From the IMG/VR virus record IMGVR_UViG_3300033753_000082: 41,992 bases of DNA; one strand, 5' to 3'. The notes under the pieces were generated by a model. The model was not told where the DNA came from. It searched no databases and was given only the letters and a program-made list of their open reading frames with translations. This document shows positions 9,080 to 34,745 of the stretch, piece after piece (the first letter of the stretch is position 1; the number at the start of each line of letters is the position of its first letter). A program made the translations under genes and the position numbers. The DNA is from a virus.

Positions 9080-9183
9080 TTCGTCGTTTCTAGACGATCT
9101 TCCGACAGACGCGGATTCGGCGCACTACTAGACCTGAGCGACCTGCAAAAACGCAGGTGAGCACACCGGATACAGGTCGAGAT

Positions 9184-9225
9184 CTTTTAATCCGCGGGTT
9201 CTGGGTTCGATCCCCAGGCGGCCCA
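9184..9225 (+). other. attP core: 3' half of a tRNA-Lys(UUU) (anticodon loop to discriminator)
   Basis: CTTTTAA loop, TCCGC, 5-nt variable, T-arm CTGGG-TTCGATC-CCCAG, acceptor strand GCGGCCC, A. No matching 5' half upstream. Lies directly upstream of the integrase. Confidence 0.7.
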
Positions 9226-9303
9226 CGACCTGCGAAAACGCCCCTGAGGCCCTGAGCACACCTAGTGGACAGACGCGGACTGGATGGGGTACGATCCCCG
9301 GCC

Positions 9304-10200
9304 ATGGGTGCCGATCTGTCCGAGTTGCTCGATGACTGGGTGATCCATCTCAGGGCCACGGGGAAGCGGCCTAGGACGATAGATGCCTACCGCCAGGTTG
9401 CCGATGACTTCCTCGCGCACCTGCGCCGTGAGGGTCTACCGACCGAAGCCGACCGACTTCGCATGGCGCACGTGGAGCACTACCTAGCGTCGCTGTCGGC
9501 GCGGGTGAGTCCGGGCACTGTGGCGAAGTCGTACCGCCACCTTCAGCAGTTGTGCCGCTGGTTGACCGAGGAGGGTGAGGTCTCCCGCAACCCCATGGAG
9601 CGCATGAAGCCGCCCAGGGTGCCCCCGCAACCGGTCCCGGTGCTGTCCAGTGAGGACATCGGCCGGGTCCTGAGCGTGTGCAAGGGGGCCGGCTTCGAGC
9701 AACGTCGCGACATGGCCATTTTCAGGATTTTGCTCGATACCGGCATGCGCTCAGCGGAACTTCTGGGCATGACTACTGAGGACGTCGACCGCCACCAACA
9801 GGTGTGCTGGGTGATGGGCAAGGGTGGCCGGGGACGCGTCGTGCCGTTCGGGGCGAAAGCCGCCGAGGCTCTGTCGCGGTATCTTCGGGAGCGCTCGAAG
9901 CATCCCCGGGCGGCCACGACTGACGCACTGTGGATCGGCCACAGAGGCCCGCTGACGGACTCTGGGCTGAGGCAGATGATGGAGCGCAGAGGCCGAGAGG
10001 CCGGCGTCCCGGGACTCCATCCGCACCGCTGGCGGCACACGTTCGCTCACCTGTGGTTGGCTGGCGGTGGCCAGGAGCAGGACCTTATGAACCTCGCAGG
10101 GTGGCGGAGTCGTGAGATGGTGGCTCGCTACGGGGCCTCAGCGGCCACGATGCGTGCTCATCAGGCGCACCGAAGACTATCTCTGGGCGACAAGTTTTAG
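9304..10200 (+). CDS. int: Tyrosine integrase (XerC/D-like, SAM-like N-terminal domain)
   Basis: HPHRWRHTFAH (HxxR box) and GWRSREMVARYGA (catalytic Y); N-terminal LSELLDDWVIHLRATGKRPRTIDAYRQ. ORF track starts at GTG 9265; ATG 9304 preferred, start uncertain. Confidence 0.9.
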   Translation: MGADLSELLDDWVIHLRATGKRPRTIDAYRQVADDFLAHLRREGLPTEADRLRMAHVEHYLASLSARVSPGTVAKSYRHLQQLCRWLTEEGEVSRNPMERMKPPRVPPQPVPVLSSEDIGRVLSVCKGAGFEQRRDMAIFRILLDTGMRSAELLGMTTEDVDRHQQVCWVMGKGGRGRVVPFGAKAAEALSRYLRERSKHPRAATTDALWIGHRGPLTDSGLRQMMERRGREAGVPGLHPHRWRHTFAHLWLAGGGQEQDLMNLAGWRSREMVARYGASAATMRAHQAHRRLSLGDKF

Positions 10201-26091: not shown

Positions 26092-28584
26092 ATGGCGGAA
26101 GGGACCGAAGTCGCTAAGGCATTCGTCACCCTTATCCCGTCGTTCAGGGGCGGCAAAAAGCGGATTGAGAACGAGCTAGGCGGAATCATAGTCGGAGGCT
26201 CGAAGAAGGGCGGCCGAGCTGGCGGTGTCGCCGCTGCCGCCGCTATTGGCGCGGGTCTGAAAAAGGGCGGTCTAGCAGTCACCGCCGCCGCTATCGGTGT
26301 TCTAGGCGTAGCCCTGCAAAAGGGCTTCAGTCGTTTAACCGCGATCGAGGACGCTCAGTCAAAGCTCACAGGTCTAGGCCACAGCGCAAAGACGGTTGAA
26401 ACAATCATGACCAACGCGCTGAACGCTGTACGGGGCACAGCGTTCGGCCTAGACGAAGCGGCTACTATCGCCGCTAGCGTCGTGGCCGCTGGCGTCAAGC
26501 CGGGGCAGGAGTTAGAGAAAACACTCAAGCTCGTTGCCGACGCGGCCACCATAGCGGGTACCTCACTAGGTGACATGGGCTCTATCTTCAACCAGGTTGC
26601 GGCCGGTAACCGGTTGACGATGGAGGAAGTCAACCGTCTCTCTGACCGAGGAATCCCGATCCTCCAGATGCTGGGTAAAGAGTTCGGGGTGACCGCCCTC
26701 GAAGCCCGCAAGATGGTTGAGGAAGGGGAGGTTGACTTTAAGGAATTTCGCAAGGTCATTGAGGAAAACATGGCCGGTGCGGCCTTGGAGTCCGGAGAGA
26801 CGACGCGAGGTGCTTTCGCTAACGTCGGCGCGGCCCTAGCCAGGTTCGGAGCGGCGCTCCTGTCCGGCGTATTCCCGCACCTAAAGACCGTCTTCAACGG
26901 GATGATCACCCTCATTGACAACGCCACGGCGAAGGTCGGCCCGTTCGTTGACGCGGTGAGCAAGCGGATAGGCGCAGCATTCCAGGCAGCGCTTCCGTAC
27001 GTTCAGGCATTCATCCGTGGGTTCCAAGGATTCACCGCCAGTGGCGGTGGGCCGTTCGTTGTGTTCGTGAACGCCGGTAACAAGGTGCGCCAGGTCCTTG
27101 ACAGGATACTCCCAGCCCTGTCATCGGTCAGTAACACGGCGCGCTCCACGCTACTACCTACGCTGGTCGGGCTCGGCCGGACTCTGCTTCCGCTGGCTAG
27201 CTCAATCCTGAGCGCATTTGGTCGAGTCGCTCCCGCCGTCGCCAAGGTGGCCGCCGCTATCGGCCGTTTTATCGGGGCCATTTTGCCCCCGATTATGAGC
27301 CTTGCTCGGCAAGTTGTTCAGATCCTAGCTCCGGCGTTTCGTCAGATCGGCCTAATCGTCGCAAACGAGGTTGCCCCGAACCTCGTTAAACTACTGGACG
27401 CGCTAGCCCCGATCGCTAAATGGATCGTTGAGCGCATGGCGCCGGTGGTTGTATCGGCCCTTAAAGGCATCGTTGAGGCCGTTAAGGGCGGGCTTGAGGT
27501 TCTAAGCGGCGTAATTAAGGTCTTTGTTGGTATCTTTACGCTAGACTGGGACACGGCTTGGAGCGGTATCAAGCAAATCTTCAGCGGCGCGCTCACGGCC
27601 ATTGTTGGCGTTGTGAAGAACGGCTTCAACATTATTAAGGAGACGTTTAACAGCGCCGTCGAGGCAATCACGTCCATCGTGGGTGCGCTTGGTACGCGGA
27701 TCACGATCCTGATCACTAAGCTGTGGGCTGGAATCAAGAGTAACTTCCAGAGCAGCATTAACGCGACCATTCAGTTCTGGGCTAATTTCTTCGCTAAGGC
27801 GCTTTCCATCGCCAAATCTACGTGGAACTCGATCAAGGCCGCGTTCACCTCTGCGCTTAACTCGGTAAAAAGTGCGGTAAGCTCCGGACTTAACTCTGTT
27901 GTATCGTTCTTCCGTAGCTCGTTCTCCAGCGCTAAGCAAGTTACATCGTCCGCGTGGAACTCTATCCGCTCCGCCATTTCTAGCGCGGCGTCCGGGGCGG
28001 TCGAGCGCATCCGTAGCGCGTGGAACACCGCCAAGACCGCGACGTCGAACGCATGGAACTCAATTAAGGCTGCGCTCAGGAGCGCCATTGACGGATTGCT
28101 TGGCGTCCTGCGGGGGCTTCCCGGCAGGATCAAATCGGCGGTCGGTGACCTGAGCGGTGTGCTGTTCGAGGCCGGACGATCTATCATCCGAGGGCTCATC
28201 CGAGGAATTGAAAACATGATCGGAGCGCTCCGCAGCAAGCTTAAGAGCGTCACGGACATGATCCCCAAGGTTAAGGGACCGCTCCCCGTCGACCTTAAGC
28301 TGCTTGAACCGGCCGGCAAGGCCATCATGACCGGCCTTATTCGAGGTATCGAGGAGCGAGCCGCTGACCTACGCCGGACGCTAGTGTCGATTACTCGGGA
28401 CATCCCGGGTATGAGTGGGGGACTCGATCTCCGCAACCTCGAACGCTACAAGCTGGGCGCGGCGGCTGTTGGCGGTGGCGATACGTACATCTTCAACGGT
28501 CGCAACCTTGACATCAACGAGCGCACCATCGGCCCGATCATCTACGGCCAGAGATTGCGTGCGAGGGTTAGGAGGCCTAGATAA
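26092..28584 (+). CDS. Tape measure protein
   Basis: 830 aa, Ala/Gly/Ser-rich helical, TM-like segments, 11-residue-phased W repeats; canonical position. Confidence 0.9.
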   Translation: MAEGTEVAKAFVTLIPSFRGGKKRIENELGGIIVGGSKKGGRAGGVAAAAAIGAGLKKGGLAVTAAAIGVLGVALQKGFSRLTAIEDAQSKLTGLGHSAKTVETIMTNALNAVRGTAFGLDEAATIAASVVAAGVKPGQELEKTLKLVADAATIAGTSLGDMGSIFNQVAAGNRLTMEEVNRLSDRGIPILQMLGKEFGVTALEARKMVEEGEVDFKEFRKVIEENMAGAALESGETTRGAFANVGAALARFGAALLSGVFPHLKTVFNGMITLIDNATAKVGPFVDAVSKRIGAAFQAALPYVQAFIRGFQGFTASGGGPFVVFVNAGNKVRQVLDRILPALSSVSNTARSTLLPTLVGLGRTLLPLASSILSAFGRVAPAVAKVAAAIGRFIGAILPPIMSLARQVVQILAPAFRQIGLIVANEVAPNLVKLLDALAPIAKWIVERMAPVVVSALKGIVEAVKGGLEVLSGVIKVFVGIFTLDWDTAWSGIKQIFSGALTAIVGVVKNGFNIIKETFNSAVEAITSIVGALGTRITILITKLWAGIKSNFQSSINATIQFWANFFAKALSIAKSTWNSIKAAFTSALNSVKSAVSSGLNSVVSFFRSSFSSAKQVTSSAWNSIRSAISSAASGAVERIRSAWNTAKTATSNAWNSIKAALRSAIDGLLGVLRGLPGRIKSAVGDLSGVLFEAGRSIIRGLIRGIENMIGALRSKLKSVTDMIPKVKGPLPVDLKLLEPAGKAIMTGLIRGIEERAADLRRTLVSITRDIPGMSGGLDLRNLERYKLGAAAVGGGDTYIFNGRNLDINERTIGPIIYGQRLRARVRRPR

Positions 28585-33835: not shown

Positions 33836-33852
33836 CCCTCCCTCCTCTAAAC

Positions 33853-33894
33853 AAAAGGCCCTCGGGGCTCGGTGACGAGCCTCGGGGGCCTTTT
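33853..33894. terminator. Strong bidirectional intrinsic terminator ending the late operon
   Basis: 15-bp stem GGCCCTCGGGGCTCG/CGAGCCTCGGGGGCC (two G-U), GTGA loop, flanked by AAAA and TTTTGTGTTTT. Confidence 0.9.
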
Positions 33895-34101
33895 GTGTTT
33901 TAGGTCACATCCTAGAACGCTCTCTAACGGCCTAACGCGGGCGTCCGAGGGTGATTTCCCTTGGCTGACTTACGGACCGCTTAGCAAGCGCTTACCTGTG
34001 TTTCCGCAGGTAAGGAGGCCTTGACGTGTCCGAGTTGGCGTTGTTCGTTGGTGTCCGTAAGTTCGTGACCCAACCGTTACCAAATTCCTTGCTCTCCCGA
34101 C

Positions 34102-34130
34102 TTGCACGACGTGAGTTGGCATGCCATAGT
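34102..34130 (+). promoter_or_regulatory. Early promoter TTGCAC-17-CATAGT
   Basis: ACTTG/AGTTG/AGTTA at 34100/34114/34128; ATAGTTAAG shared with the promoters at 5283 and 6906. Confidence 0.65.
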
Positions 34131-34319
34131 TAAGCCATCACCCGGACGGGATGAAGTTCCGGGAAGCAGATTGACAACCGAATGAGCGCGGCTCCCGCAC
34201 AGGGTGGGGTGGCTCCCAAAGAGCACCGGTCCTGGCTTTGCCCGGCCCCGATGGCGGAGTGGCTTACGCGACACCTTAGACACACAGACTTCGCCCCTGC
34301 GCCTTGCGTGGGGGCACTT

Positions 34320-34398
34320 GGGGCCGACTTGGTGTCGACAGCGCTCTACGGCCGCACGCGGCAAGCGCTGGAAGAGGGTTCAACTCCCTCCGGCTCCA
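34320..34398 (+). ncRNA. tmRNA-like tRNA-like domain without an mRNA-like domain (TLD-only mini-tmRNA candidate)
   Basis: Acceptor GGGGCCG/CGGCTCC (7 bp, G3:U70) plus discriminator A. T-arm GAGGG-TTCAACT-CCCTC. 5' strand followed by AC-TTGGTGTCGAC. A 6-bp AGCGCT/AGCGCT helix capped by a GC hairpin replaces the D and anticodon arms. Confidence 0.55.
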
Positions 34399-34427
34399 CG
34401 CAACCAACTAACACTTAGGAGGCACCA

Positions 34428-34745
34428 ATGGTCGTAGAGACCGCCACCTACACCCACACCTACTACACACTCACGGGTGAGGCTCGCGTCTATGAGCTGA
34501 GCTTCCCCTTCACCTACTACGCCGTCTACGGGGACGAGCACCGGACGGAGAAAGGCGAAACAAACTACATCGTCGCCATCTCCGCCCCTCGCCTCCGTGG
34601 AGGCGAACACACGACGCGCACCTTCCCGGCGGACCGTGACGGCAACGTCCTGGTCTGGGAGGCAGCGTCGACCATCCCACACATTGCACACGCCGAGTCC
34701 GTGAGGGACCTCGGATACGTGCCCATCGGTGACCCCGGGGACTGA
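34428..34745 (+). CDS. Hypothetical protein
   Basis: Strong RBS TTAGGAGG; 105-aa ORF. Confidence 0.8.
   Translation: MVVETATYTHTYYTLTGEARVYELSFPFTYYAVYGDEHRTEKGETNYIVAISAPRLRGGEHTTRTFPADRDGNVLVWEAASTIPHIAHAESVRDLGYVPIGDPGD

Follow-up and report, generated by a model that had tools for sequence, protein, structure and literature searches.

A gene for a transfer-messenger RNA (tmRNA) homologue pared down to its tRNA-like domain (TLD) is very probably present at positions 34320 to 34398 on the plus strand of the virus sequence IMGVR_UViG_3300033753_000082 (IMG/VR; 41,992 nt, analyzed over its whole length and referred to below as the window). The predicted mature RNA is 79 nt long. In its sequence, the element has every feature that defines a tmRNA TLD and belongs to the same covarying family as the TLD-only tmRNA of Mycobacterium phage DS6A. 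The identification draws on a match to the Rfam tmRNA model (RF00023), a family model built with the window sequence left out, and natural variants of the same phage. Bacteria rely chiefly on trans-translation for ribosome rescue and for quality control of nonstop proteins, and some actinobacteria cannot do without it. A phage mimic of its entry module alone would be a compact natural inhibitor or diverter of the pathway, and the sequence features, together with analogy to known systems, lead us to lean toward a dominant-negative, alanyl-chargeable, SmpB-binding competitor of host tmRNA as its function.

All features listed for the element by an initial annotation of the window are present. 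As read from the sequence, the acceptor stem forms all 7 of its 7 bp between GGGGCCG (34320 to 34326) and CGGCTCC (34391 to 34397; CGGCUCC in the RNA); the initial annotation had the sequence of this 3′ strand right but not its exact coordinates, which are those given here, with the discriminator A at 34398. The stem contains a G3:U70 wobble pair (G34322:U34395), which with the discriminator A34398 (A73) constitutes the identity set by which alanyl-tRNA synthetase (AlaRS) recognizes tmRNA (PMC3968760). Directly after the 5′ acceptor strand stands ACTTGGTGTCGAC, and the segment from 34327 to 34339, ACUUGGUGUCGAC, is a stemless analogue of the D-loop, with GG at 34331 to 34332 and UCGAC at 34335 to 34339, which the RF00023 alignment places on the tmRNA consensus GAucuGGaUUCGAC. 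SmpB binds the elbow of the TLD and this stemless D-loop, and an interaction between the D-loop and the T-loop is required (PMC3968760). The T-arm, GAGGG-UUCAACU-CCCUC (34374 to 34390), has a 5-bp stem and a 7-nt loop, both in the sequence and in the RF00023 alignment.

Between the two halves lies a central arm equivalent to helix 2a (34339 to 34370), in which C34339-G34370 and the pairing of AGCGCT at 34340 to 34345 with AGCGCT at 34364 to 34369 (AGCGCU/AGCGCU in the RNA) give a 7-bp helix, followed by an internal loop and an enclosed inner hairpin, GCCG-CACG-CGGC (34351 to 34362). This arm stands in for about 310 nt of pseudoknots and tag open reading frame (ORF). It is joined to the T-arm by a GAA spacer (34371 to 34373; GGAA, at 34370 to 34373, when G34370 is included), the counterpart of tmRNA GGAC in the RF00023 alignment. 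There, G34371 and A34372 face A34338 and G34337 as the G·A and A·G pairs of the Rfam model, so that the base of helix 2, GAC opposite GGA, lies between the D-loop analogue and the T-arm. The 79-mer folded alone adopts the shape described (−37.9 kcal/mol; z = −2.5 against shuffled sequences).

Resume codon, tag ORF and stop codon are all absent, only 18 nt lying between the strands of helix 2a and no tag peptide being given by ARAGORN. The pseudoknots PK1 to PK4 are absent too: 310 RF00023 positions are deleted, and the 30-nt insert is a simple hairpin. Without tag ORF, stop codon or pseudoknots, complete trans-translation is impossible for the element. Nor does it have a D-stem, an anticodon arm or an anticodon, as judged from the fold, the family alignment and ARAGORN.

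When 95 nt around the element were scanned, which relaxes the speed filters of Infernal, RF00023 gave 55.2 bits (E = 9e-22), above its gathering score of 47. The alignment spans model positions 1 to 372 of 374, takes in the acceptor stem, the stemless D-loop analogue, the base of helix 2, the T-arm and the discriminator, and replaces 310 positions with 18 nt. In the Rfam clan competition, tmRNA outscored tRNA on the element. The permuted tmRNA model (RF04321) gave a truncated match of 17.7 bits; a two-piece, permuted tmRNA was rejected, both acceptor strands being on one 79-nt, hairpin-closed RNA. No significant match of the element to the mitochondrial model mt-tmRNA (RF02544) was listed in the Rfam scans. 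In longer sequence Rfam was silent or nearly so: at gathering thresholds over the whole window the element was not reported, and an E-value scan of 331 nt returned a tmRNA match over the 17-nt T-arm only. These misses are filter artefacts.

The element's kinship with full-length tmRNAs is also direct. Its 3′ 23-mer has 22 matches in species-representative bacterial genomes, many of them in full-length tmRNAs for which ARAGORN predicts tag peptides (Bacteroidota, Planctomycetota and Clostridia), and two of them in tRNA-Ala(GGC) genes. The tmRNAs that share the 23-mer begin with, for example, GGGGCCGACCGGTTTCGAC or GGGGCCGTACTTGGAATCGAC and end in GGAC-GAGGGTTCAACTCCCTC-CGGCTCCA, and the window element reads GGGGCCGACTTGGTGTCGAC ... 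GGAA-GAGGGTTCAACTCCCTC-CGGCTCCA. The 5′ motif GGGGCCGA..GG..UCGAC is common to the element and to full-length tmRNAs with tag ORFs; the roughly 320 to 350 nt that separate the TLD halves of real tmRNAs are absent from the element. Like canonical one-piece tmRNA (SsrA, RF00023), it thus has both TLD halves reaching the model ends, with acceptor stem, G3:U70, A73, stemless D-loop, GAC/GGA base and T-arm, but unlike it the element has none of the resume codon, tag ORF, stop codon and pseudoknots. With tRNA-Ala and alanine minihelices it shares G3:U70, A73, the T-arm and, for some tRNA-Ala(GGC), the 3′ 23-mer, whereas tRNA-Ala has a D-stem, an anticodon arm and an anticodon. Identity as tRNA-Ala was rejected: ARAGORN found 0 genes, there is no cloverleaf, and the tmRNA model ranked above tRNA. 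There was no sign of capture of a host tmRNA: among species representatives, none of the Micrococcales yielded a tmRNA sharing this 3′ end.

BLASTN against GenBank phages found no relative of the region (short matches only, at tRNA-Ala and ssrA 3′ ends), and neither flanking gene had relatives in viral contigs, so homologues were sought by architecture. The search pattern was confined to the 5′ strand GGGGCNGA, UCGAC, a short gap and the core of the T-loop, and left positions 70 and 73, the 3′ acceptor strand and the central helix free. It matched 40 viral contigs and at least 119 metagenome contigs; a narrow, window-specific pattern had 0 matches in metagenomes. Among the matches listed, 67 of 127 distinct sequences have a perfect 7-bp acceptor stem and 5-bp T-stem, and every one of these 67 has A as its discriminator and G:U as its 3:70 pair, with no case of the more stable G:C. 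The rest look like chance matches. In all, at least 70 distinct homologues occur in viral and metagenomic contigs with GC contents of 32 to 68%.

Covariation supports the proposed helices. When 30 distinct members are aligned with MAFFT, 98% of cells are paired, compared with 39 to 54% when the partners are slid by 1 to 3 columns. The covariation score is 0.656 against 0.124 for shuffled alignments (0 of 500 reach it), and RNAalifold independently gives the same three helices. A model-based alignment of 70 members is 98.5% paired, with a covariation score of 0.683 against 0.127 and G3:U70 in 70 of 70 members; over both alignments, slid partners leave 39 to 55% of cells paired. Acceptor pairs 5 and 6 covary, with 4 to 6 pair types, as do 4 of the 5 pairs of the T-stem. 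The central helix is 94 to 96% paired and has compensatory double changes at 5 of 6 pairs: its closing C:G pair is kept in 70 of 70 members, and the next five pairs covary, with up to six pair types. Unpaired positions are also conserved. The D-loop GG, which unlike UCGAC was not part of the search pattern, is kept in at least 90% of members, and the A at element position 53 is invariant (30 of 30). The initial proposal, of a tmRNA TLD in which a short hairpin replaces the tag and pseudoknot region, is thus borne out by the RF00023 score, by the comparison with full-length tmRNAs and by 70 covarying homologues.

An inner hairpin CCGCAYGCGG is common to the window element, DS6A and several other members. 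It recurs as CCGC-AYG-CGG after an A-rich internal loop (AAGA or AAAA) in the window (34350 to 34363), in DS6A and in L012, L014, L018, L025, L027, L031 and L037, and is kept beyond the needs of a simple closing hairpin. It may be a remnant of helix 2b or PK1 or a protein contact.

A family model, R2, trained on DS6A and 28 viral-contig elements with the window sequence excluded, recovered the element at exactly 34320 to 34398, full length, with 73.4 bits (E = 1.9e-13), and its next-best match in the 42-kb window scored 11.7 bits. On the family models, tRNA-Ala genes score 33 to 37 bits, against 73 to 81 bits for the window element, and 40 metagenome members outside the training set of model R1 score 58 to 82 bits on it. 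The initial annotation had asked for comparison of covariance models with background, and at 55.2 and 73.4 bits the element is far beyond chance. The Rfam and ARAGORN searches that it had also proposed divided: RF00023 recognized the element once its filters were relaxed, and ARAGORN (0 genes in the window) and default Rfam did not. Both are equally blind to the published DS6A copy. ARAGORN misses 66 of 69 family loci as well, and its three overlapping calls at these loci are spurious extensions; at L029 and L116, spurious "tmRNA*" calls come with invented tag peptides. In default mode, 8 other family members exceed the RF00023 gathering score. The silence of ARAGORN and of default Rfam is therefore a failure of tools and filters and not evidence against the element. 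Annotation of such genes needs a family-specific covariance model or the unfiltered Rfam tmRNA model applied to intergenic regions.

Natural variants bear on the possibility that 34320 to 34398 is not an RNA gene but an attP core, a remnant of imprecise excision, a decayed tRNA pseudogene or part of ORF 34182-34418. The same phage was found in several samples; six contigs carry the locus, and the diverged variants L189 and L190 differ from the window element by 0 of 79 and 1 of 79 substitutions. The single change, A34382G, turns the T-loop into the family consensus UUCGACU. Upstream of the element, by contrast, the variants' non-coding DNA is 38%, 24%, 7% and 3 to 6% diverged in successive segments; as the downstream gene is nearly identical too, this gradient may owe something to a mosaic boundary as well as to selection on the RNA. 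ORF 34182-34418, which in the window is open across the element, was rejected as a gene: it has an in-frame stop at codon 18 in both variants, nonsynonymous changes outnumber synonymous ones by 6:1 and 4:1, it has no Pfam match, and gene calling passed over it on all six contigs with the locus. In five family members no forward frame stays open across the element, each of the three containing a stop. The initial annotation had named conservation of this reading frame in place of the helices as a sign against the RNA; homologues keep the helices and not the ORF.

Phages often carry ssrA and tRNA 3′ ends as attP sites, as the short BLASTN matches illustrate, and this phage encodes a tyrosine integrase (9265 to 10200). 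The integrase is, however, 25 kb from the element and has its own tRNA-3′-end-like sequence 37 nt upstream (9170 to 9228). The 5′ half of the TLD, for which an attP core has no need, is present and perfectly paired; the 3′ 23-mer occurs in no Micrococcales genome among species representatives; and with 70 contigs carrying compact homologues that covary, random decay is ruled out. Within the reach of sequence analysis, a non-RNA explanation is refuted, and it is hardly credible that one will prove correct.

The sequence upstream of the integrase (9170 to 9228, plus strand) resembles the 3′ part of a tRNA, with an anticodon-loop-like CTTTTAA, a T-arm (CTGGG-TTCGATC-CCCAG, 9201 to 9217) and then GCGGCCC-A. 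It is probably, on its sequence, the attP core through which the phage would integrate into a tRNA gene of its host, possibly that for tRNA-Lys(UUU), and could identify the host.

The initial annotation knew of no described TLD-only tmRNA gene. One has been published: "Mycobacterium phage DS6A (TLD only)" is listed by Hudson, Lau and Williams 2014 (PMC4131195), and CDS-less (coding-sequence-less) organellar tmRNAs are known. PMC4131195 and PMC11915505 cite Mao et al. 2009 for inhibition of Escherichia coli tmRNA by the DS6A RNA, reportedly without a need for chargeability. DS6A is the only phage example named in the literature searched, in which Mao et al. 2009 was seen through citing papers. 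We located the DS6A element at 28478 to 28557 of JN698994 (tmRNA Website tmID 11587, Phage__Mycobacterium.9); it scores 77 bits on the family model and 34.7 bits on RF00023.

The two elements are alike in many respects. Both are about 80 nt long and encoded by actinophages (69% identical overall), with identical GGGGCCG/CGGCUCC acceptor strands, G3:U70, A73, a UCGAC D-loop analogue, no encoded CCA and one central helix with the same CCGCACGCGG inner hairpin. Both also lie at a junction of late and early genes, in DS6A between gp33 and gp34 (the last late gene and the first early/replication gene), and both are missed by ARAGORN and default Rfam filters. They differ in the phage backbone, TerL and portal being just 34 to 36% identical, and in the spacer, which is GCAC in DS6A and GGAA in the window. 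With RF00023 scores of 55.2 and 34.7 bits, respectively, the window element is a more canonical TLD than that of DS6A.

TLD-like RNAs are known beyond phages. CDS-less tmRNAs occur in jakobid mitochondria (RF02544) and two plastids (PMC11915505 and Jacob et al. 2004 cited there), and forms of about 65 bp are described for plastids of Mallomonadaceae (PMC11915505). Like the phage element, these are natural RNAs with little beyond the TLD and no tag reading frame. Unlike it, they belong to the organelle as its vertically inherited rescue RNA and act with a matching SmpB that is imported; the phage element comes as an additional copy into a cell that already holds a full tmRNA, and competition is therefore to be expected.

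Engineered TLDs provide a second comparison. An artificial TLD made from the 5′ 25 nt and 3′ 34 nt of Thermus thermophilus tmRNA joined by UUCG cocrystallizes with SmpB (PDB 2CZJ; PMC3929946), and polyalanine is made without a template when a TLD fragment is combined with SmpB (Shimizu and Ueda 2006, as cited in PMC3929946), which implies that an isolated TLD can be charged, be delivered, accept a peptide and translocate. In these constructs, as in the phage element, both TLD halves are closed by a short hairpin. Unlike them, the phage RNA is natural, and its central arm is longer (7-bp helix, internal loop and 4-bp tetraloop hairpin) and partly conserved.

The window is a complete-looking actinophage contig of about 42 kb with 61% GC (JGI 3300033802, Ga0373398_001380), whose portal is 57 to 60% identical to Arthrobacter phage portals. 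Terminase, portal, tape-measure and tail genes run to 33094 and are followed by two small membrane-type genes to 33835. A very strong intrinsic terminator (33852 to 33905, plus strand; 20-bp stem and U tract) ends this late operon of tail and membrane-protein genes, and its structure is conserved: L189 and L190 have a hairpin of different sequence and a T tract in the same place. About 415 nt of non-coding DNA (33906 to 34319, plus strand) separate the terminator from the element; 33975 to 34100 and the part from about 34100 on are well kept in the variants, and 33906 to 33970 is not. On all six contigs, the 590-nt gap is free of gene calls.

Beyond the element follow small early genes, a dNMP kinase, an exonuclease and a primase, and the element is co-oriented with and immediately before the early genes. 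The first of these (34428 to 34745, plus strand; 105 aa) belongs to no known family, is called on all six contigs and is nearly identical in the variants, with synonymous changes only. Its ribosome-binding site (RBS), AGGAGG, is at 34417 to 34422. From the end of the element it is 18 nt to the RBS and 29 nt to the ATG at 34428, a correction to the 30 nt given initially as the distance to the RBS. A putative early promoter proposed by the initial annotation, TTGCAC and CATAGT separated by 17 nt and with TGn before the latter (34102 to 34130, plus strand), had a mixed outcome. In L189 and L190, TGnCATAGT (34122 to 34130) and the 17-nt spacing to TTG(C/T)(A/G)C are kept while 5 spacer bases change, and the divergence of the variants falls from about 24% to about 7% at this site; how it fared in a promoter scan is taken up below.

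The leader position, 29 nt before the first early gene, could also suit a cis-acting processing signal, at which RNase P and a 3′ endonuclease trim the early leader and set the 5′ end of the early mRNA, the small RNA being a by-product (compare mascRNA and MALAT1). The mascRNA model aligned end to end with the element at 22 bits (331-nt E-value scan and 95-nt scan), and the DS6A copy likewise lies between the last late and the first replication gene. We consider this explanation very improbable. An acceptor/T-arm minihelix suffices for RNase P and RNase Z, so that the invariant G3:U70 and A73, the GG..UCGAC D-loop analogue and the GAC/GGA base would remain unexplained. Moreover, many family members are in tRNA arrays or unrelated positions, and two contigs have two copies each.

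As for action as a competitor of host tmRNA, the position of the element downstream of the late-operon terminator suggests that it would be transcribed with the early genes. It would then be excised in the manner of a tRNA, by RNase P at G34320 and by 3′ cleavage after A34398, and the CCA-adding enzyme of the host would supply its CCA. The 5′ end of tmRNA is generated by RNase P (PMC3968760, PMC3929946), and elsewhere among phages this element is found within arrays of tRNA genes. The invariant G3:U70 and A73 point to alanine charging by host AlaRS; the D-loop analogue, the T-loop and the GAC/GGA base, together with the artificial TLDs and DS6A, point to binding of host SmpB and EF-Tu. The RNA would compete with host tmRNA for SmpB and stalled ribosomes, and trans-translation would be blocked or diverted during infection, and with it tagging for proteolysis, release when the tag stop codon is reached, and the coupled breakdown of nonstop mRNA. 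The initial annotation had proposed a decoy or a tag-less rescue RNA; as possible functions both are reasonable and agree with proposals made for DS6A.

Several observations weigh against competition with host tmRNA by a charged early transcript. The 3′ CCA is not encoded, as stated initially (CGC follows A34398); the same holds for DS6A and, among the matches listed, for 43 of 67 members, and post-transcriptional addition is expected. In the minimum-energy fold of a 241-nt context, an upstream CGGCCCC (34243 to 34249) competes for the 5′ acceptor strand, a pairing that the initial annotation had considered; that fold is no better than those of shuffled sequences (z = −0.48), and the pairing may be chance, the sequence being GC-rich, or may give the precursor an alternative structure. 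A σ70 consensus scan called no promoter, and the site at 34102 to 34130 failed it. Among cultured phages the two closest relatives, JasmineDragon and DrManhattan of Arthrobacter, have the same gene order and lack the element, which is thus dispensable for such phages. Finally, a pure SmpB sponge would need neither G3:U70 nor A73, yet both are invariant, a hint that the RNA's function includes acting on the ribosome. As the published inhibition by the DS6A RNA reportedly did not depend on chargeability, the alanine identity set favors ribosome action over a pure sponge.

The same molecule might instead help the phage as a tag-less ribosome-rescue RNA, an interpretation that we regard as possible but rather unlikely. 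Alanyl-TLD with SmpB and EF-Tu would enter ribosomes stalled on broken mRNAs (e.g., after attack by host RNases or toxins) and take over the nascent chain, and the ribosome would be freed by drop-off, peptidyl-tRNA hydrolase or ArfB-type release, with no degradation tag; repeated rounds might add a short alanine tail. The presence of G3:U70 and A73 in all 67 members among the matches listed argues for selected charging and hence for ribosome action. A TLD fragment with SmpB carries out peptidyl transfer and translocation as well as template-free polyalanine synthesis (PMC3929946), and natural tmRNAs with Ala-Ala-only tags exist (PMC11915505). However, a TLD without a stop codon leaves termination unexplained, and G3:U70 might persist because AlaRS or EF-Tu binding stabilizes the RNA. 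In addition, the sole experimental result reported for the class (DS6A in E. coli; PMC11915505, PMC4131195) is inhibition of tmRNA and not complementation.

The loci of the family offer little sign of a dedicated partner. A same-strand tRNA lies 1, 9 and 14 nt from the element in L001, L009 and L037, within 100 nt in 5 of 69 loci and somewhere in the locus in 21 of 69. No protein family recurs beside the element in more than 4 of 69 loci, and without a recurrent phage-encoded partner the element has to act by way of host factors. Its behavior is that of an accessory RNA gene, self-contained and horizontally mobile, that relies on them. Two metagenome contigs carry two same-strand TLD-only copies each, about 80 to 700 nt apart (L143, 5064 to 5143 and 5859 to 5937; L149, 6792 to 6862 and 6942 to 7023).

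Sporadic occurrence and mobility among unrelated phages are also features of counter-defence genes, and the element could be a decoy for a host defence or RNA-decay factor that recognizes tmRNA or tRNA, such as the SmpB-like domains of CoCoNuT restriction systems or RNase R. CoCoNuT Types II and III-A carry SmpB-like OB folds predicted to bind tmRNA, and SsrA is reported to be the most frequent bacterial substrate of RtcB (PMC11090510), an RtcB-like ligase being encoded by DS6A. Fragments of t(m)RNA act in an anti-CRISPR complex that binds RNase R (PMC11662646). These links are purely associative, though; TLDs are not known to trigger or block any defence system, and no phage protein partner co-occurs over the 69 loci. 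Such a role seems improbable. The RtcB-like RNA ligase of DS6A is gp76 (L041, 49300 to 50502); an RtcB homologue was not noticed in the window.

The TLD-only phage tmRNA is a kind already known from DS6A, and the window element is a further case of a barely studied kind, represented so far by one published example and a single heterologous experiment. The window adds a second actinophage example, closer to the tmRNA consensus than DS6A. Three things go beyond the literature searched: how large and broad the family is, that ARAGORN and default Rfam overlook it, and that its charging determinants are invariant. Members of the class are widespread, their structure is strongly selected, and the tools by which phage tRNA and tmRNA genes are annotated miss them systematically. 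ARAGORN-based surveys, such as that reporting tmRNA in 2.3% of phages (PMC9004378), therefore omit TLD-only elements. The invariance of G3:U70 and A73 sharpens the question of whether these RNAs are sponges or act on the ribosome. It is a tentative proposal, which we put below even chance, that TLD-only tmRNAs form a large, overlooked phage class that is charged and catalytic on stalled ribosomes, not a class of passive SmpB sponges. If so, tagging could be aborted, or tag-free or alanine-only ends added, rewiring host protein quality control during infection.

Two further groups of short RNAs share parts of the element. In L044 (6172 to 6248), L045 (2073 to 2148, minus strand) and L059 (7144 to 7219), from metagenome-assembled genomes of Actinomycetes and Thermoleophilia, ARAGORN calls a 77-nt tRNA-Stop (anticodon UUA) with the acceptor stem and T-arm of the window element, including G3:U70 and A73. 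These genes may encode an alanine-inserting ochre suppressor, perhaps phage or prophage borne. Short tRNA-like sequences of about 68 to 78 nt occur in Melainabacteria (L052, 2472 to 2549; L060, 3217 to 3294) and Phycisphaerales (L046, 53 to 120, minus strand; L053, 4531 to 4599; L062, 6439 to 6507). They have a G3:U70 acceptor stem and an identical T-arm, lack UCGAC and draw no call from ARAGORN, and may represent further reduced forms of tmRNA- or tRNA-like RNAs, or fragments of permuted tmRNA genes.

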